Source: Octopus vulgaris (Eukaryota). From it: a DNA stretch of 64,000 bases. A program made the position numbers and the translations under genes. Position 1 is the first letter of the stretch, and each line of letters begins with the position of its first letter. The notes beneath the pieces are model-generated. The model saw only the letters and a list, made by a program, of their open reading frames with translations, was not told the DNA's origin and made no database searches. Below are positions 2,930 through 48,739 of this stretch, piece after piece. Where the stretch lies: the NCBI GenBank assembly GCA_951406725.2, contig OX597818.1:4650001-4714000 (forward strand). Reading direction: 5' to 3'.

Positions 2930-5900
2930 TATGCAGGCTGAAGGCTATTGTTTTTTTTATGAATTCTGCCAAATGCGAGCTTTCTTTTCAGGTACATAAC
3001 AATTCTGTCCCCTATCCCAGGGTCTCACGAGCCCACACCTCTCACACCCTCAGAGTTGGCACACTCAACATGGGCACACTGAAAGGTAAGTCAGGTGAGA
3101 TTGTTGAGATGCTTGAATGGACACATGTAGATTTGTGCTGCCTCCATGAAGTAAGATAGTAAGGAGGTTCTGCTAGGTTTCTCACAGGTAAAGAACACAG
3201 GTACAAGATTTTCTGGGCAGGGACCACTGATGGGGTCGGGGACGTGGGTATACTTCTTGTGGAGAAATGGGTTGATAAGGTAATCGAGGTAGTCAGAGTA
3301 TGCGACAGAATACTTAAGATTAGATTAGTGCTCCATCATGGGTTAGCAACCATTATCTCGGCCTATGCTCCTCAGCCAGGGCTACCTGATGGACAGAAAG
3401 ACCGATTTTATGACACCCTCTTGCAGACTACCTTGTTGACGAATGACAAGGACCTTCTCTTTGTAGCTGGTGACTTCAATAGACATGTTGGACAACATGC
3501 AGGGGCTTCCATGGTGAACATGGAGGCTAGAGTTTTGATTCCCATAATGAGGAGGGAACCAGGCTGCTGGAGTTCTGCAATGCAAATGATCTTATAGTTT
3601 GCAATACTAATTTCTGCAAACCTGCCAGCCACCTAGTCACCTACTATACTGGCACACACACTAGCCAAATTGACTACATCCTCGCCAGAAAAAGGGAAAG
3701 ATGGCTGCTTATAAATGCCAAAACCTTCCCAGGCAAAGAATGTACCCCACAACATAGACTAGTAGTTAGCGACTTCAGGATCAGGGCTAAATGGATACCC
3801 AGAAGACGACCAGCATGGAGGAGAAGGGTCTGGAAGCTTAAAGGTCCTGCAAATGGACAGAGATTTAGAGACGTATTACTTGAAGCCTTTGACGAAATAG
3901 AAGAGGATATAGCATCACATGATGTGGAAGACAAATGGAGGTTTCTACGGGACAACCTGCTGAGGGCCACTGGCCAGATCAGTGGATGGTGCAAAGTCCC
4001 CTCTCAACCCAAGGTAACGTGGTGGGGGAACAATGTTGTTGACAGAGCTATTAGAAAAAAGAAACAGGCTTGGAAAGACTGGAAGAACAGTGGTAATAGG
4101 GAGTTGTATCAGACTGCCAGGAGGGAAGCTAGGGAAGCAGATAAGAAAAAATTTACCAATGTTCAGCGTTGTGAGGACCAAAGGTTTGAAGTATTTCATG
4201 TTGCAAAACAGTGTGTGAGAGAGAATCATGATGTCATAGGAGAGAAATGTATCCGCATGGATGATGGTTCACTTGCATTACAGGAGGCTACAAACAGAGA
4301 GGTTTGGAGACGCCACTATGAAAGGTTGCTCAATAAAGGGAATGAATGGGAGAAAGAGAGTCTGCCAAATGTCGACCCAACAGAGGGACCAGCTATCCGA
4401 ATTGACAGTACCTTTGTACATAAAGTAATTAAGGGAATGAAGACAGAGAAAGCCCCCAGCCCATCAGGTATCACCACAGTGATGCTCAAAATATCTGGCA
4501 GTGTTGGCTATAGCCTAGTCACCCATATAGTTAACCAGGTGATACACGAAGGAGTCATACCCAATGACTGGTGTAGCAGCATAATAGTCAACTGCTACAA
4601 AGGTAAAGGTGACGGTTTAGATACAAATAATTACAGAGGTATCAAGTTGTTGGATCAGGTAATGAAGGTCACGGAGAGGGTCTTAGCCCAACTAATTAGG
4701 GAGAGAGTTAGTTTAGATGAGATGCAGTTTGGGTTCATGCAAGGGAAAAGCACCACTGATGCTATATTTCTGGTAAGACAGCAGCAGGAGAAATACCTAG
4801 CCAAAGATAAACCCCTGTACCTGGCTTTTGTTGACATGGAGAAAGCCTTTAACAGGGACCCCTGATCCCTTATCTGGTGGTCAACGAGGAAACTAGGGAT
4901 AGATGAATGGTTAGTGAGAGCTGTGCAACCCATGTACAGAGATGCTGTCAGTAAGGTGAGGGCTGACAACGAGTACCGTGAAGCATTCCGAGTAGGGGTA
5001 GGGGTCCACCAAGGATAAGTCCTCTTATTCATCATAGTCCTCAAGGCAATAAGAGAGGAATTCAAGACAGAGTGCCCCTGGGAGCTCCTCAATGCTGATA
5101 GCCTTGACTCTAATTGCTGAGTCACTATCAGAACTAGAGGAAAAGTTTCAGGTGTGGAAGCAAGGATTAGAATCAAAGGGCTTAGAGTCAACCTAACTAA
5201 AACCAAAATCTTAATAAGTAGGAAGGCAGACAAACCACAAATCCCTTCAGGTAGATGGCCCTGCTCAATCTGTAGAAAAGGCGTAGGTAGAAACTCTATA
5301 AAATGTACCCAGTGTAAGCTATGGATACATAAGAGGTGCAGCAATATCAAAGGGAGGCTAACTGAGTTACCTAGGTGACCAAGTCAGTAGCAGGGGTGGA
5401 TGCTCTGAAAGTGTAGCTGCTAGAATAAGAATAGCCAGGGCAAAGTTCAGAGAGCTTCTTCTGCTGGTGACAATGGGCCTCTCACTCAGATTAAAAGGTA
5501 GACTGCCTGATGCATGTGTATGAAGAGCCATGCTACTTGGCAGTGAAACATGGGCCGTGACATCTGAGGACATGTGTAACTTTGCAAGGAATGAAACCAG
5601 TATGCTCTGCTGGATGTGTAATGTCAGTGTGCATACACGACAGAGTGTAAGTGCCCTGAGAGAAAAGTTGGACTTAAGAAGCATCAGATGTGGTGTGCAA
5701 GAGAGGTGACTGTGCTGGTATGGTCATGTTTTGCAAATGAATTAGGACAGCTGTGTGAAAAAGTGTCACACCCTAGCAGTTGAGGAACCTGTGGAAGAGG
5801 TAGACCCAGGAAAACCTGGGAAGAGGTAGTGAAGCATGATCATCAAACATTGGGCCTTATCGAGACAATGACTAGTGATTGGGACCTTTGGAGATATGTT

Positions 5901-8878: not shown

Positions 8879-11172
8879 CATCATCATCATCATCATCATC
8901 GTTGTTTAACGTCCGTTTTCCGCGCTAGCACGGGTTGGACAGTTCGACCGGGGTCTGGGAAGCCAGGGGCTGCACCAGGCTCCAGTCTGATCTGGCAGTG
9001 TTTCTACAGCTGGATGCCCTTCCTAATGCCAACCACTCCGCGAGTGTAGTGGGTGCTTTTTATGTGCCACCGGCACAGGTGCCAGGGGAGTCTGGCATTG
9101 GCCACAATCGGTTGGTGCTTTTAACGTGCCACCGGCATGGAAGCCAGTCTAGGTGGCGCTGGCATCGGCCACGTTCGGATGGTGCTTTTTATGTGCCACC
9201 GGCACAGAAGCCAGTCGAGGCGGCGCTGGCATCAGCCACGTTCGGATGGTGCTTTTTATGTGTCACCGGCACAGGTATCACAACTACTATTTCCATTGAT
9301 ATTTATTTCGATGTTCATGTACTTGACTCAATAGGTCTCCTCAAGCACAGCGGGATGTTCTAGAATCCAAGGTACTTTGAATAGGCAGGGGCTATGTGAA
9401 ACTGGTGCAGGAAGCAGCCCGGGCCTTTGCAGTCACAGCATATCTCCAGAGATCTCAGTCCTTCGCCATTGCCTCTGTGAGGCCCAACGCTCTGAGGTCA
9501 TGCTTGACTACCTCATCCCATGTCTTCCTGATACCTTCAACTGTTTGGGAGTGGCACTTCTTCACACATCTCTCCTCATCCATCCGCAGTACATGACCAT
9601 ACCATCGCAAGTGTCGCTCTTGCACACCACATCTGATGCTTGTTATGTCCAGCATTTCTCTCAGGGTGCTTACCCTCTGTCGTGCGTGCACACTGACATT
9701 ACACATCCAACGGATCATGCTAGTTTCATTTCTTTCAAGTATACGCATGTCCTCTGCAGTCATGGCCCATGTTTCACTACTGTGAAGCATGGCAGTTCGC
9801 ACACATGCATCATACAATCTACCTTTCACTCTGAGCGAGAGACCCTTTGTCGCCAGTAGGGGTAGGAGCTTTCTAAACTTTGCCCAGGCTATTCGTATTC
9901 TAGTGGTGACACTTTCTGAGCATCCACCCCCACTACTAAATTGGTCACCCAGGTAGCGGAAACTATCAACTACTTCTAGTTTCTCCCCCTGGAGTGTGAT
10001 GGAATCTGTTTTATGAGTATCTGTGGTGTCTATTGTCCCTGTGCATCTGCTGCACATGAAAGCTATCTTATCAGTTAATTTCCCTTTGATGTTGCTGCAC
10101 CTCTTATGCGTCCATAGCTTACACTGGGTACATCTTATGGACTTTCTACCTACACCTTTCCTACAGATCGAGCAGGGCCACCTGCCCAATGGGGTGTGTG
10201 CTGAGTTCGCCTTTCTGCTTACTATAACTTTGGTCTTTGCTACATTTACTCTAAGGCCCTTTGATTCTAACCCTTGCTTCCACACCCGAAATTTTTTTTC
10301 TAGTTCCGGTAGTGATTCTGCTATGAGAGCCAGGTCATCAGCATAGAGGAGCTCCCAGGGGCAACCTGTTTTGAATTCCTCTGTTATTGCCTGGAGGACT
10401 ATGATGAATAAAAGGGGACTGAGGGCTGAGCCTTGGTGTACACCTACTTCTACCAGGAATTCTTCACTATATTTGTTGCCAATCCTAACCTTGCTGACAG
10501 CCTCTCTGTATAGGGCCTGTACAGCCCTTATTAGCCATTCGTCAATCTCCAGTTTCCGCATCGACCACCAGATAAGGGATCGGGGGACCCTGTCAAAGGC
10601 TTTCTCCAAGTTCACAAAAGCTATGTAGAGGGGTTTATCTTTAGCTAGGTACTTCTCCTGCAGTTGTTGGACCAGGAATATAGCATCAGTGGTGCTTCTA
10701 CCCGGCACAAAACCGAACTGCATCTCATCTAAGCAAATTCTCTCCCTAATGAGATGGGTTATGACCCTCTCTGTGACCTTCATCACCTGATCCAACAGTT
10801 TAATACCCCTGTAGTTATTTCTGTCTAGAGCATCACCTTGTAGCAGTTGACTATGGTGCTGCTACGCCAGTCATTGGGTATGACTCCATTATGAACTACC
10901 TGGTTTACAATGCGGGTGACTAGGCCATAGCCCACATAACCAGCTGTTTTAAGCATCTCAGCAGTGATTCCTGATGGGCCGGGGGCTTTACCTGGTTTCA
11001 TACCCTTAATTGCCTTAACTACAAGGGAGCTGTCTATTCGGATAGCTGGTCCCTCTACTGGGTCAACATTTGGCAGGCTCTCCTCCTCCCATTCATTCTC
11101 CACATTCAACAGTCTTTCATAATGGCTTCTCCAAGCCTCTTTCTTTTCACCATCATTAAAGGCTAGTGCCCC
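8879..11172 (-). mobile_element. 5'-truncated, relatively young RTE LINE
   Basis: RT ORFs 10825-11109 and 9455-10795, 3' UTR repeat array at ~9050-9275, (CAT)n tail at 8879-8900. Confidence 0.93.
9455..10795 (-). pseudogene. RTE reverse transcriptase ORF fragment (446 aa) with PHD-type finger
   Basis: QFGFVPGRSTTDAIF, LEKAFDRV, GVHQGSALSPLLF, LLYADDL, then CSIC...CTQC...HKRC...CSRC, FRYLG, LRWYGHV. The endonuclease is missing and the upstream ORF piece is frameshifted. Confidence 0.9.
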
Positions 11173-19862: not shown

Positions 19863-20669
19863 TAATACCGCATATATAATGAATATATTTAATTACTTAA
19901 ATATATTCCTAAGAATCTTTAAAACAACTAATTTCAGCTTGTATTAACCATTCTGATTTCATTGATCATGCAACCATTGTATTAACCATTCCAATTGATG
20001 AAGACCCTCAATATGAACTTTTATTCTTTTACTGGTTTTTGTTCTTTTATACTTTTACTTGCTTCAGTTAGGGCACTGCCATTAAGAATTTTTGACAATT
20101 ATATTTGATCTCAGTACTTTATTTGATACATCTTTTACCTTGCTATTTTTGTCGAATGCATCCTACACTGATATACAAATATGCTGTCTCCTTAATGTGT
20201 TTTTTTTTCTACTACTGTTACGGTGATCTCTGCTCTTCAAGCTGGTTGACCTCATGCCACCTCCACTCATTTGTGTATCTTCTTTTGTCACTCATACTTT
20301 GTTAACTCTTTCAGACATTGTGCTAATGAATACATCTAGTTATCTTAGAACATCATTCCTCCAGAATTCCCTTTGGCCAACATAAGGCTCTGGTTGTTGA
20401 TACTGTCAATTTGCTCTATAGAGCCATGCCTGTGCAGTAAATCAGCCAAGTTTATTCTTAATAATAATTAGATTATTCCTATTATTTCTTGGACACTATG
20501 AAAAAAAAAAACTTTGGGCTGAATATATATGTATATTCAATCTCATTTTGTTCTGTAGCAACCATTCCAATCCAAGGGGGCTTTCATTATTAGTTTTATA
20601 TAAACTAATAATGAAATATTATTTGGGAGCATAGTGATAAAAAGGAAACCATTTAAGAATCAAACTTAC

Positions 20670-21328
20670 CTGATGTTTGATGGAATCTTCTGGAAAGACT
20701 CCATCAGAGATATGTTCTTGACTACTAAGTTGGAAATTGGTTTCTTGCTTAAACTGACCATTACTGTTAAGAGTATCAGATGAGAAGGAGGATTCGACAA
20801 TGAGATCACTATTGTATCTATCATCATCATCATCATCATCATCATCAACATTATTATTGGTATCACCATCCACATTATCATCGTCAAGATTGATATTATT
20901 CATTTCAGACATATGATGTGAGAGTTGTAGTTGTTGTTGTTCACAATGTTGTTGATGTTGCCTTTGTTGTTGTTCAAGCAGTTTTCTTTGTTGCAGTATT
21001 TGTTGTTGATGAAATGTGTCTCTTTTCTGGTGATGCTGCAGCATCGAATGACATCCTGAGTGCATCTGGATTTCTTCAGGAGTTGTTGGCAGCAGGGGTG
21101 CAAGAGATGGTTGTGATGGTGATTGTGGTAGTGGTGGTGTTGGTGGAGACATTTTGAATGTGTTGCTGCTATGGCTAATGTCTTCATTATTAGATATTGT
21201 ATTGTATGGACTGAAAGTCATAGCATCAAAGAGTGGGATGATTCCATTTTCAACTTGGTCAGCTAATCGTCGCAGAAACTGCACAAATGCACCACGCATC
21301 ACTGCTTCATTATAGACAATATCTTCAG
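20670..21328 (-). CDS. Large coding exon of BEN-domain protein (amphipathic helix, then P-, Q/H- and D-rich low complexity)
   Basis: 659-bp open exon, acceptor atttcag|CT, donor CAG|GTAAGT. Phase 1 in matches exon 35195 and phase 0 out matches exon 15582. Confidence 0.82.
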
Positions 21329-21377
21329 CTGAAATATAATTGTACATTTAGAGTTTAACTAAATTCTTTATACATTA

Positions 21378-35339: not shown

Positions 35340-35481
35340 GATGGTGGTAAGCAAAAGTAGAGATGAAGGTTTGCTTAAGGAAATCTCTGCTATTCAGAAG
35401 TATGTTTTATTTGAGTAATCAAAATCTGAAAATAAAAGAAGACCATATATAATATGTAGACACATCACACGAACACACACA

Positions 35482-36385
35482 TGCAAAGCAATTAAGGGTA
35501 CGAAGACAGGGAAAGCCCCCAGCCCATCAGGAAACACTGCAGAGATACTCAAAGTATCTGGCAGTGTTGGTTATAGCCTAGTCACCTGTATAGTAAACCA
35601 GGTGATACATGAAGGAGTCACACCCAATGACTGGTGTAGCAGCACCATAGTCAACTGCAACAAAGGTAAAGGTGATGTATTAGATACAAATAATTACAGA
35701 GGTATCAAGCTGTTGGATCAAGTAATGAAAGTCATAGAGAGGGTTGTAGCCCAACTAATTACGGAGAGGGTCAGTCAAGACATGATGCAGTTTGGGTTTG
35801 TGCCAGGGAAAAGTACCACTGATGCTATATTTCTGGTAAGACAGCTGCAGGAGAAATACCTAGCCAAAGATAAACCCCTGTACCTGGCTTTTGTTGACAT
35901 GGAGAAAACTTTTGACAGGGTCCCCCGATCCCTTATCTGGTGGTCAATGAGGAAACTAGGGATAGATGAATGGTTAATGAGAGCTGTGCAAGCCATGTAC
36001 AGGGATGATGTCAGTAAGGTGAGGGTTGGCAACAAATAGAAAAAAGAATTCCAGGTAGAGGTAGAGGTCCACCAAAATACAGTCACCAGCCTCCTCCTAT
36101 TTATCATAGTCCTCCATGCAATAACAGAGGAATTCAAGACAGGGTGCCCCTGGGAGCTCCTAAATGCTGATGACCTTGCTCTTATTGCTGAGTCACTATC
36201 AGAACTAGAGGAGAAGTTTCAAGTGTTGAAACAAGGATTAGAATCGAAGGGACTTAGAGTCAATCAAGCTAAAACTAAAGTCCTAATAAGTAGGAAGGCA
36301 GGCAAATCACAAATCCCTTCAGGTAGTTGGCCCGGCTCGATCTGCAGAAAAGACATAGGTAGAAACTCTATAAGATGTACCCAGT
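35482..36385 (+). mobile_element. Internal RTE RT fragment
   Basis: ORF 35602-36039 (NYRGIKLL, QFGFVPGKSTTDAIF, FVDMEKTFDRV), closely similar to 4430-5310. Confidence 0.9.
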
Positions 36386-44305: not shown

Positions 44306-45483
44306 AATTCCCATCATTATCAATGACTTCCTTCCATCTACTCATCAGATTTTTAATTCCATTGGTGAAAAACTATTTTGGTTTTGATGAGAAAGAAGAG
44401 AGGTCATTTTTGACCTCTTTGGGACTTTTGAGTACTAATCCATCGAAATGATGCAGTAAACTTCGAAACAAATGGAAGGAGTGAGGTTCAAGAAATAAGA
44501 CAGGTAAGGAATTTTTTCCCAGCCAAATTCTTTGATTTTGTCTGATGTAATCTTTGCCCTGTGAGGCCTTACATTATCATGATGAAACGCCATTCCCTTA
44601 CGATTCACCAAAACAGGCCTTTTTTCTTTCAAAGGAGCAATCTAAACACTCTAATTTTTGGCAATAGGTGTGAGCAATAATTGTTGCATTAGTTGGTAGC
44701 AGCTCAAAGTGGATGACTCCAATGCAATCCTACCAAACAGAAAGAAGAATCTTTTTTGCATGGGGATCCTTTTTGGATTGAGATTTAGACTATTCTCCAC
44801 AACTAAGTCATTGCCAACATCACTTAATATTTTCATTAAAAAATCCAGTCACTAACCTGTCCAAAAATGGTGAGATGCATTCATGAGAGTGAAGAGGTGT
44901 GCAGATGTTCACTTGTGATTTTCAGTTGGTTTCTGTCAAATAATGTGGAATCCATTTTCTGAGTTTGGGCAAGCTGGTGAAGATGGTGGTGAACAGTTGA
45001 AGGCTTGATTTGAGCTTGCTTGCCAATTCTTCAACTGACACAGCATTATTCTTCTAAAGCTCTGACAAAAGAAGCTCATCATCAAATCCAACAGGGCATC
45101 CTATTTATGGCCTCTCTCTTAGGCTGAAATCACTACTTTTGAACTTTGTAAACCATCTTCTGCAACTTCTTTCATTTAAGCACTCTTCCCCATAAACAGA
45201 ATGAATGTTTTGGGTTGTTTCTGCTGCACTGTTTCCCTTTTTGAACTCATAAAGCATTATGTGCCTTAAATGCTCCTTCAATACGTCCAACATTGAGGGG
45301 TTAATATTAGTAGTAATTTATTCAGTCAGATTAATTAATAATGAAAAGAAATTATATTAAGTTTAAAGGGTTCCAAATCCATTTGAGTATCAATCAATAC
45401 CATTTGATATTTTAGAATACTGTAAAATGTGATAGAAATTACATATATGATATTTTGGACATTATTTATGAGGTGATCTGTTA
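44306..45483 (-). mobile_element. Decayed mariner transposon
   Basis: HTH HLRHIMLYEFKKGNSAAETTQNI...CRRWFTKFKSSDFSL (45105-45293) and catalytic relic FHHDNVRPH...GWEKIPY (44435-44632). TIR-like sequence at ~45455-45483. Confidence 0.88.
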
Positions 45484-45627
45484 CTTGAAAATTTTGAATT
45501 TATTTTTGATTTATGTCAAAATTAGTGGTCATGCAGTGCATGTATTGCATACCTCGAATGCATGCAACTGTTACATGTACATAGGTTTGGTAGAACAAGC
45601 AAAAGAAACAGAAGTTAGTATATAGAG

Positions 45628-45717
45628 AATACTAAACGAGTTCCCTATGGATACCGTATTTATTACAAGCCACGAGTTGTAATAAATATGGTATCCATAG
45701 GGAATGAGTTTGGTATT
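45628..45717. repeat. Terminal hairpin of the Crypton (41-bp arms, 8-nt loop)
   Basis: 45628-45668 versus reverse complement of 45677-45717: 36 of 41 identical, two of the mismatches G.T-compatible. Confidence 0.93.
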
Positions 45718-46051
45718 TTATTTATTACACACGAATAAACGACCATATTTTATTAATTTAATAATTAAATCCTTCACATCATGTTGAAGCGCGCATGAAT
45801 ACAGCTTGATTTCACGTCAGTGACGTCACAATGTGTAACTGTAAAAGATGTCATGCCGCAGGAAGATAGTCCGACTTTATAGCGCTAAGTTTTCAGGTGA
45901 AATGACTGATAACTGATGACTATTTAACATTTTGTTAACATTCAAGTTCACGTTCAAGAAATACATAACACAGATTGAATCTTCAATAACTTTAATAATA
46001 CTCAAACATATTTTCGAGTAGCAATGTCAGTCAGCAATAGTCCAGGAAAAC

Positions 46052-47620
46052 TTAACAGTCCTCATTATCTGTGAGACGAGGTTGCTTTGCATCTGAACCA
46101 AAGAAGTTCACATTGATTGTTCCCCCAAATATTGGAGCCGAGAAAATGGAGTGCAATGAACCAAAGCAAGTGACAGCGTTCCGAGGTTGACTCGACGTAA
46201 CGTTGACAGTGGAGGGGAGTTCACTTGCACTCGCTGCTGCTGTGTGTGACGGAGGTAGAAGCGAACCAGGCTGGTCATTGTTGCTACTAAGGATGTTACT
46301 GATGGCACGATGACAATCCATGGAAATATTGCTGTAACTATTGATGCTTTGCACATTACGATGTCCAGATATCTGCATGATTTCAGTTGGAGGAATGTTC
46401 TGGTCAGCGAGCTTCTGCACAAGGTATTTGCGTGCTGAATGGTTCGTGAATCTTTGATTGTCCAAACCAGCTGATTTAGCCATCCTTTTCATAATTGTAC
46501 CTAGTTTGTTGACACCGACCGGTTGACGTTTAAACCAGGGATGAGAATGGGAGGCATCTTTGCAGTTGGTGGCCAAATAAAATGGTGAATCCGGCGATGA
46601 ATAATCTGATGGTCTCAGATCAGCAAAACGCTTGTACAGGTTAACTGGACAACGCTCATCATTCGTCGCCCATGCTTTTGGGTAGATGTTACGTGCATGG
46701 TCAAGATTATCATCTTGACAAGTTTTGGACTGTCGCTCCCTAAACTGAAGGAATTCCTTGCCTTCATTGTCAACATGCAAAGAAACATCGCCCCATCGCA
46801 TGTCGTTGTGAGGTTTGACACTCCGGATACCAAAGTGAACGGTGTTGTTCCACCATAGCGTGTTGAGGATGGATTCAGGTGTGTTCGTACCGAGCTGGTC
46901 ACATTCCCATAGCTTGTTGATATCATCGTCGGAGAGAGATTCCGTGCATCGAGGTAGGTTTCCCATTCCTTCACTTTTCAACAGCTTTTGCTTCGTTTTT
47001 AGTATGTCATGTAGTTTCACGAATGTCCCGTCCGAGAATAGTGACGTCGAGTAGTGTTTTGACTTCAGATATCTTTCAATACTGGATAACATTCCCATCA
47101 AAGATGAAGGTTCATAGTTGCTACCGTCTGGCTTTCGTAACGAAATAAAGAAAGTACAGAGAATGTCACAAAGTTCGCTTTTGTCGATAGATTCAATTGG
47201 ATGCATGTCGCCATTTGTCGCCATGAAAGCAAACAATCGTTTAACATCATAGTTTGTTTTTCGAAGAGTGTTTTTATTTTGATTACCTTGAACGAATTTA
47301 TCTATTCCAGAATGATCATACCTCGGTTGAAATTCAAGATCATTATGGCTATCATCAAAGAAATCGTCATGAAGAAGATCATTGTACACCTCATCAGGGA
47401 TGTTAAATGCAGGGTTCGATGACAATCCACTCGTCGATGACACTGTTTCAGGTACCTTTGTTAACCTGTATCCAGCAACATGTCGAACTTGGCCAGTATT
47501 TATCTTCACATTGAACATTCTATATGTTCCAAGAGGTTGAACAATGGATAATACTCTTCCCCCATCTTTACCATCAATCTTAACAAAATCATTCACCTTG
47601 ATATCGATAACATTAGCCAT
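46052..47620 (-). CDS. Tyrosine recombinase, Crypton / DUF3504 (KIAA1958/ZMYM-related) family, 522 aa
   Basis: Uninterrupted ORF from the likely ATG at 47620. Motifs RKPDGSNYEPSSL, HFGIR (R 46823-25), RQSKT (K 46724-26), RCPVNLYK, PVGVNKL, FTNHSAR (H 46439-41, R 46430-32), ISGH (H 46361-63), SINSY (Y 46334-36). Confidence 0.92.
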   Translation of the reverse strand: MANVIDIKVNDFVKIDGKDGGRVLSIVQPLGTYRMFNVKINTGQVRHVAGYRLTKVPETVSSTSGLSSNPAFNIPDEVYNDLLHDDFFDDSHNDLEFQPRYDHSGIDKFVQGNQNKNTLRKTNYDVKRLFAFMATNGDMHPIESIDKSELCDILCTFFISLRKPDGSNYEPSSLMGMLSSIERYLKSKHYSTSLFSDGTFVKLHDILKTKQKLLKSEGMGNLPRCTESLSDDDINKLWECDQLGTNTPESILNTLWWNNTVHFGIRSVKPHNDMRWGDVSLHVDNEGKEFLQFRERQSKTCQDDNLDHARNIYPKAWATNDERCPVNLYKRFADLRPSDYSSPDSPFYLATNCKDASHSHPWFKRQPVGVNKLGTIMKRMAKSAGLDNQRFTNHSARKYLVQKLADQNIPPTEIMQISGHRNVQSINSYSNISMDCHRAISNILSSNNDQPGSLLPPSHTAAASASELPSTVNVTSSQPRNAVTCFGSLHSIFSAPIFGGTINVNFFGSDAKQPRLTDNEDC

Positions 47621-47638
47621 CTTGTTGATAGATCTACC

Positions 47639-47752
47639 TGCACTGCAACAGTATCGACGAGCAGACGATATATGTTTGCACTGCAACAGTATCGACGAGC
47701 AGACGATATATGTTTGCACTGCAACAGTATCGACGAGCAGACGATATATGTT
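47639..47752. repeat. Perfect 3 x 38-bp tandem repeat upstream of the recombinase ATG
   Basis: TGCACTGCAACAGTATCGACGAGCAGACGATATATGTT at 47639, 47677 and 47715. Confidence 0.97.
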
Positions 47753-48195
47753 GTGATTTTTTTGGCAACAAAAAATTGAATTACGACCAGAAATGTTTAT
47801 ATTTTATGTGTATATGACTTTAAGTGATATCTGGTATAAAAAAGATAGTATGTTTGTTTAAATATATGGCTACATTCTACCGGCTCGTGAAAGTTTAGTT
47901 GTAACTTATGAATGACAAAAGTAGTGTCGTCACCGTGACCTCGGGTCATCACCATGGATTGACCAATCAGAAGCAGCGCTCGCAGTATCTGACATATGTT
48001 AGATACCAAAAATATCTCAAAGTGTTCTCACTCACATGTGTGTAATAAATGAGTATATATACTTTTTTTATTTAATTTAATTGGTGGAAATTACAATAAC
48101 TGACTCCAATTTTGGTAGCTCGGTTCTTTATATAGAGTGAAATACATTTTGAAATATTTGATAAAAAACAAAATTGGAGGGTCATGTGAAAAATA

Positions 48196-48440
48196 CATCA
48201 TCATCATTACTTAATGTCTGTTTTCCATGCTGGCATGGGTTGAATGATTTGACAGGAGCTGACCAGCTGGGGAGCTGCACCAGGCACCAAATGTCTGTTT
48301 TGGCATGATTTCTATGGCTGAATGCTCTTCCTAATGCTAACCACTTTACAGAGTGTACTGGGTGCTTATCATGTGGCACTGGTATGGGTGCCATTTACGT
48401 GACACCAACATGGATGGCTTTTTATGTGGCACTTGTATGA
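48196..48440 (-). mobile_element. RTE 3' UTR fragment
   Basis: (CAT)n then 'ttttccatgctggcatgggtt...cttcctaatgctaaccact'. Confidence 0.78.
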
Positions 48441-48739
48441 GTGCATATTTTTTAAAAAATAGTCTGCCTATTAAACAGAACAAAATCCTGACTGGAGATA
48501 AAATCTAGTAAAAGAAAAAAAGTGCATAACAAATACATAGACATATATTATTGCTCATACATACATGTACATAAAAATTCAGATTATGCAATAGAAGCAG
48601 TTCTATAGTGTAAATATTATCAATACTACTAAGTTAATGTACATCTATTGTTTAAATGCCAGAAGCTGTGGTTCATTGTCCAAGAAAAACTCCATTTAAT
48701 CTGTTAAATGTAATTCTTATTTATTCACATTTTTTTCTT

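Follow-up and report, generated by a model that had tools for sequence, protein, structure and literature searches.

A multicopy CryptonA family in Octopus vulgaris whose joined ends form a junction-spanning hairpin, a candidate for movement as a folded DNA strand

The CryptonA elements of animals are the closest described relatives of the locus analyzed here. They carry a single DUF3504-type tyrosine recombinase with no known C-terminal domain, measure about 2.4 kb, lack terminal inverted repeats (TIRs), and have given rise to many non-autonomous derivatives, all of which the octopus element has in common with them (PMC3212892). The part of that survey dealing with animal Cryptons reports that no terminal repeats were found (Kojima and Jurka 2011, PMC3212892), and the terminal column is n.d. 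in two medaka CryptonA rows of its Additional file 1. Its full text contains neither "palindrom" nor "hairpin" (0 occurrences each), and cephalopods are absent from its Table 1 (PMC3212892). Eulor5/6 were tied to CryptonA through their termini, in a paper whose accessible text also has neither of these words (PMC5753468). The octopus element differs from the CryptonA elements so described in having ends defined to the base, with a hairpin that spans their junction. To our knowledge, how animal Cryptons move has not been demonstrated so far. Eulor repeats have been described as self-complementary, and a palindrome may be noted there.

Three other systems share single traits with the octopus element. 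CryptonF-1_cRei of Chlamydomonas also uses a short target resembling one of its termini and also rises in copy number; it belongs to a different Crypton group, the accessible part of its description mentions no hairpin, and the octopus target is AT-rich and degenerate (PMC9977147). In DIRS retrotransposons, a tyrosine recombinase gene is likewise accompanied by an internal stretch that can pair with the termini (PMC13465315), and the octopus element falls outside this group in having no reverse transcriptase, RNase H, or inverted terminal repeats (ITRs). The accessible text of the Glomhopper paper describes no clear repeats and contains neither "palindrom" nor "hairpin" (PMC13465315). Integron integrases acting on attC/attG, and phage CTX via XerCD, recombine a folded single strand, and they work by a tyrosine recombinase, a folded single-strand site, the exchange of one strand, and replicative resolution (PMC4792948). 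Genomic targets of integrons show a very short consensus, GWT at positions -1 to 2, in which the base two positions away from the cut does not vary (10.1101/2022.09.11.507474); this is paralleled by an invariant A two bases before the octopus crossover. Integrons are, however, bacterial, and the extrahelical bases of attC are read by the I2 helix, whereas tandem G.A pairs occur here. The octopus element moreover encodes its own enzyme, to which the integron integrase is a distant structural match (rank 29), and is not a member of that system. Among the matches listed in searches of the Crypton literature for hairpin, palindrome, and CryptonA, with Repbase and Dfam entries outside the scope, a junction-spanning hairpin is undescribed. 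The point of interest is this strand-coded hairpin of the family.

The window, a stretch of 64,000 nucleotides of the Octopus vulgaris genome (contig OX597818.1), holds a near-full-length copy, 2,427 bp long, of a multicopy CryptonA (DUF3504) tyrosine-recombinase transposon (Table 1). A search of the species' own 2.8-Gb genome gave 7 near-full-length copies at 96.6 to 98.9% identity with shared ends, and a 25-nt right-end pattern had 269 exact matches, revealing at least 269 relatives of the window element. The 137 loci retrieved from this genome were reduced to 104 unique two-ended copies, and to 102 once the head-to-tail tandem was removed. Most copies of the family are internal deletions of 300 to 1300 bp. 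Five truncated copies on one contig (L016-L020, contig C17) have an identical left flank and are segmental duplicates. The three tandem copies upstream of the start codon correspond to a single copy of the 38-bp repeat in collapsed family contigs, with a 76-nt skip in runs X2, X4, X8, and X5.

Table 1. Coordinates of the CryptonA copy and of its parts and flanks in the window
Feature	Position	Strand	Details
CryptonA element, one near-full-length copy	45622..48048	.	Ends ATAGAG...GTGTAATAA; termini common to 102 two-ended copies
Host target half-site AGTAT	45617..45621	+	Family consensus N-A-T-A-H; opening five bases of left AGTATATA
Terminal imperfect palindrome	45622..45719	+	Downstream of ORF; outer arms with one tandem G.A loop kept
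54-nt deletion site	45668..45669	+	Hairpin tip gone: inner G.A loop and GCGAAAGC tip; middle loop unpaired
Internal segment complementary to opposite end	45720..45732	+	13-nt perfect inverted repeat with 48038-48050
522-aa tyrosine recombinase ORF (DUF3504 and Phage_integrase)	46052..47620	-	R266, K299, H394, R397, H420, Y429
Three exact 38-bp tandem copies	47639..47752	+	Upstream of start codon
Right end of element, ORF 5' side	48038..48048	+	Ending GTGTGTAATAA
Right AGTATATA	48052..48059	+	Host flank, begins 3 bases outside element

The single long ORF encodes a protein that matches the profiles DUF3504 (E 1.4e-26) and Phage_integrase (E 6e-9), as well as QRICH1. These are the only Pfam matches in the element, which has no further long ORF of its own and no reverse transcriptase, DDE transposase, GCR1_C, or other Pfam domain. 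The R-K-HxxR-H-Y set is complete and is conserved among 63 homologues (65 matches minus one fusion and one outlier), with R266 in 59, K299 in 61, H394 in 58, R397 in 62, H420 in 61, and Y429 in 60. Among named proteins, the nearest carries the label Octopus sinensis and is 95% identical, and many homologues bear QRICH1/ZMYM/KIAA1958-like names. The AlphaFold model (mean pLDDT 78) has QRICH1 and then Cre as its best structural matches. Residues 1 to 55 (window 47456-47620, minus strand) are confidently modelled as a five-stranded beta domain without a Pfam match, and an Atlas search with residues 1 to 60 gave only sub-threshold leads to small beta domains, one of them labelled KOW, which weakly suggest an SH3/KOW-like fold. 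The DUF3504 domain and the animal homologues place the element in CryptonA, as far as can be judged from sequence. In keeping with this, neither TIRs nor a fixed target-site duplication were found (of three empty-site tests, one shows 4 extra bases), and the non-autonomous derivatives have both ends in common with the longer copies. With many copies that have their ends in common, a single-copy domesticated gene is excluded, and neither the loss of catalytic residues nor the purifying selection expected of such a gene was found. An earlier sequence-only reading of this DNA had called the locus a Crypton-type transposon with a full catalytic set rather than a domesticated gene, and this stands.

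The same reading had taken two 8-bp direct repeats as the boundaries of the element and as its recombination sites. Both AGTATATA words are present (45617-45624 and 48052-48059), in a window where this 8-mer occurs 11 times against 3.2 expected. They stand at both ends in only 1 of the 102 two-ended copies, the window copy itself; the ends of the other 101 lie off the 8-bp repeats, an outcome which that reading had itself named as fatal. All copies share a right terminus GTGT-AATAA, and nearly all begin with ATAGAG or AGAGAG at the left, which places the element between the ends given in Table 1. The left AGTATATA is therefore made up of five host and three element bases, and the right one lies in host DNA, outside the element. 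The last five positions of the right end are invariant or nearly so in the 102 copies (final A in 101), and the bases beyond it are variable. Both the observation and the interpretation of the earlier reading are thus upheld in part, for the ORF and the presence of the 8-mers on the one hand and not for the boundaries on the other.

The left flank has a clear composition in the 102 copies, with A in 80, T in 86, and A in 102 at successive positions, followed by T in 52, A in 31, C in 14, and G in 5; on the other side, the right flank opens with A in 70. This left-flank consensus resembles the element's own right end, in a match that is only degenerate, the fifth position agreeing in 31 of the 102 copies. 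The perfect terminal direct repeats of 4 to 6 bp typical of CryptonF/CryptonS were not found. The crossover position was fixed through the paralogous empty sites of two other copies. Empty sites were sought by pattern search for three copies lying within host repeats. For one (L065), the two flanks joined exactly, with nothing added, in 97 of 100 among the matches listed (of 5,148); for another (L211), this was so in 14 of 100 among the matches listed (of 301), the rest being mostly of the same length with differing sequence. The third (L006) has 4 extra bases relative to its 4 empty paralogues. BLAST paralogues of L075 and L184 are compatible with no length change, and those of L064 and L198 are off by one and too diverged to count either way. 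Insertion is therefore usually seamless (two of three empty-site tests), at a fixed point in a short motif that is like one terminus. The first copies had suggested two reciprocal classes of ends about a 4-bp core, a pattern that held only in part with more data (n = 55; left core only, 16; right core only, 16; both, 3; neither, 20; P = 0.04). A single crossover with a target preference fits better, with a residual association between left T versus A and right AT (P = 0.0004, or 0.014 without TA microsatellites).

At the left end, downstream of the ORF, the element closes with an imperfect palindrome, whose 49-nt arms are 84% complementary in the window copy. The internal segment that follows it is complementary to the opposite end and completes the stem across the end-to-end junction. 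The junction predicted from this internal complement was found once in the genome, where two copies with different deletions stand head to tail (L046 = L031), and this natural junction folds as one stem running over the crossover point. That locus (~880-1880) probably arose when one copy entered at the other's end and so restored the junction. A second candidate (L047, ~1360-1770) proved to be a short copy in which conversion of the inner arm has made it perfectly complementary to the terminal arm, even over the outer bulge.

Read on the plus strand, the stem of intact copies has tandem G.A loops at three places and ends in a GCGAAAGC tip. The tip is kept in 59 of the 102 copies, flipped in 17, deleted in 8, and otherwise altered in 18. 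Flipped hairpins were not seen to form a clade: no diagnostic shared sites were found among the 10 flipped of 37 copies, and the flips are scattered; L063 and L064 have hairpin changes in common. The outer G.A loop (window 45636-45638) shows 19 cases in which inner-arm sequence has replaced that of the terminal arm and 2 of the reverse (P = 0.0002, a statistic that assumes independent events), and this polarity spans length classes. No rewriting polarity was seen at the middle loop (13 versus 15). CGAG blocks give sheared G.A pairs in DNA hairpins (PMC10085684), GCGNAGC and GCGNNAGC form unusually stable DNA mini-hairpins, and the one formed by GCGAAAGC has a melting temperature of 76.5 C in DNA and 39 C in RNA (PMC13037366). 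Folding energies computed with ViennaRNA DNA parameters are barely apart for the two strands (-71.3 versus -69.6 kcal/mol) and gave no clear strand asymmetry, which rests instead on the published stability of these motifs.

The hairpin design recurs in relatives of the element, for which we examined 80 metagenome loci at 30 to 51% protein identity. Of the 42 whose downstream flank reaches 700 nt or more, 23 have a long downstream hairpin and 19 do not, some of the latter carrying one upstream; 5 more hairpins come from loci with shorter flanks. Grouped at 60% identity, these 28 carriers make 6 clusters in addition to the octopus family, in a tree that is a quick version and with relatives that are not independent of one another. 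Of the 91 two-by-two internal loops in their hairpins, 50 read GA/AG along the ORF-antisense strand, and the flipped form, TC/CT, makes up 11 (in this tally of loops and tips, L157 duplicates L156 and the alignment of L144 failed). The tips read GC-GNA-GC, where N is A, C, or T, on stems that differ in sequence between clusters. The tip signature occurs in 18 of the 80 relative loci and is absent from the window. A search of viral contigs returned distant phage integrases only, and the signature was found in 0 of 18 phage-integrase loci. Some 870 nt beyond the match on its downstream side, L156 and L157 carry another hairpin, unrelated to the first, that also has tandem G.A loops and is tipped by GCGAAGC; it is perhaps the end of a different element.

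A segment before the hairpin that is complementary to the far end was found in 11 of 20 relatives, with differing sequences, above both controls and in 4 of the 6 clusters; the other 9 have no such complement. The 20 are the carriers left after omission of 8 of the 28, mostly lacking upstream DNA, and the complementary site lies 127 to 465 nt upstream of the protein match. One clade (L099, L100, L103, L111, and L123) has its hairpin upstream of the ORF, about 330 to 360 nt from the match. There, the GA loops and a CCGCAGG tip are on the ORF-sense strand in L111 and L123 and flipped in L099, the alignment of L103 having failed. The GA strand thus tracks the terminus and not transcription, which argues against a role as RNA.

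Taken alone, the window copy is an ordinary insertion that is ageing. Set against the majority of 7 copies, it has 41 substitutions in 2,343 columns (1.75%), and the changes private to its ORF comprise 10 replacements and 4 silent ones, as would be expected under drift. One of them, G303D, lies in the SKTCQDD motif, which had been suspected of early decay. This holds for D303, at a position occupied by G in 60 of 62 homologues and in all six other full-length copies, and not for C301, which is common to all seven full-length copies and so cannot reflect decay of this one. At the positions changed by R140H and R175M, 41 of 50 and 41 of 51 homologues, respectively, have R. Stop-free frames occur in 2 of the 7 full-length copies (the window copy and L004), the other five being broken, which makes an open frame by itself unremarkable. 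The deletion of the hairpin tip is common to 8 of the 102 copies, this one included. Contigs of the left flank reach 27 nt into the element, below the 31-letter bar, in runs X2, X4, X5, and X7 (organisms A, B, and C), only a hint that the insertion is shared. Another run (X9, RNA by guess, depth ~2) contains the ORF with window-copy alleles, including D303, and no flank, a weak hint of transcription; no RNA dataset on record was found to carry the window element. Neither an empty site nor a circle joint of this copy was among the matches listed in contigs of 7 runs, which can inform on presence only. The window copy has drifted since insertion and is probably no longer competent.

We consider it somewhat probable that this multicopy CryptonA family, whose ends form a junction-spanning hairpin, moves by a recombinase acting on one folded DNA strand. 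By analogy with integrons and phage CTX, with which the reaction would share its main steps, we lean to the same modest degree toward such a mechanism. Starting from the observed ends, junction, target motif, and hairpin design, the recombinase would join both element ends into a circle, in which the strand reading inward from the hairpin end would fold, the junction pairing with the internal complement. The folded strand would then present a recombination site in duplex form, to whose stability tandem G.A pairs and the G-N-A-type mini-hairpin tip would contribute. One strand, presumably the plus strand, would be cut and exchanged with a chromosomal N-A-T-A-H/A-T site at a fixed point, and the junction would be resolved by replication, so that the target is not duplicated and the donor may be retained. 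The flipped and tip-less copies (17 and 8 of 102) and the 4 extra bases of L006 count against this model, as do the similar computed energies of the two strands, the relatives with no downstream hairpin (19 of 42), and those with no far-end complement (9 of 20). Ends known to the base in 102 copies, a target motif, a natural junction, and near-intact proteins make the mechanism directly testable.

The palindrome could instead represent inverted protein-binding sites, with CGAG as the binding words, in a Goodwin-type double-stranded circle whose duplex ends recombine with the target. Such a model fits the Chlamydomonas CryptonF, with donor CACCG and target CAYCG (PMC9977147), and circles are reported for Starships (10.64898/2026.09.21.753150). 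The target here likewise resembles the element's end, and flipped and tip-deleted copies are common. Inverted binding sites would nevertheless be perfect repeats, whereas the arms here differ exactly at the GA/AG loops, and from family to family the stems stay paired while their sequence changes; with the G-N-A tip and the far-end complement also unexplained, we regard a duplex circle as unlikely, if worth keeping in view. Folding of single-stranded DNA might also serve replication, the hairpin being an origin or priming site through which the excised circle is converted or amplified, with recombination taking place on the duplex. GCGAAAGC is found at the priming site of phage G4, and related mini-hairpins are found at plasmid single-strand origins (PMC13037366), and a gain in copy number requires replication. 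For an origin, however, completion of the stem exactly over the crossover point would be needless, and we find this role rather improbable.

That the window copy is a recent, still competent autonomous element, with the 8-bp repeats as recombination sites, was the view of the sequence-only reading. The open ORF with its six catalytic residues and the alleles in run X9 speak for it; the single copy with both repeats already refutes it for these sites, and the substitutions, private replacements, and lost tip described above fit it poorly, so that we deem it very unlikely. Least credible of all is a domesticated DUF3504 gene or a function of the hairpin as RNA. The names of the homologues, the structural match to QRICH1, and the hint of transcription would suit domestication, and the multicopy state, intact ends, and neutral-looking private changes are against it; an RNA function is opposed by the GA loops following the terminus and not the ORF.

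The chances are about even that the folded-strand model extends to animal CryptonA at large, which would then be eukaryotic single-strand-DNA integrative elements, with a strand-coded hairpin (sheared G.A pairs and a G-N-A tip) formed only after end joining and seamless one-strand insertion, convergent with integron cassettes and using their own enzyme. If the model is true, a eukaryotic tyrosine recombinase integrates single-stranded DNA without a footprint, which would bear on the origin of the DUF3504 regulators (QRICH1, ZMYM, and KCTD1) and could provide an integration tool.

The surroundings of the element contain other repeats and open frames. Host repeats of very high copy number lie on both sides of it (window 48100-48470 and 45124-45371), and reverse-transcriptase frames of a LINE occur at 3531-4865 (+), 9455-10861 (-), and 35419-36039 (+). 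The description of the recombinase ORF as the only long unbroken transposon ORF was accordingly loose, as open frames of 444 and 468 codons with reverse-transcriptase matches are also in the window, the one of 468 codons matching a PHD finger as well. A Gln/Asp-rich open frame of 242 codons without a Pfam match (20619-21347, minus strand) is possibly a host exon.
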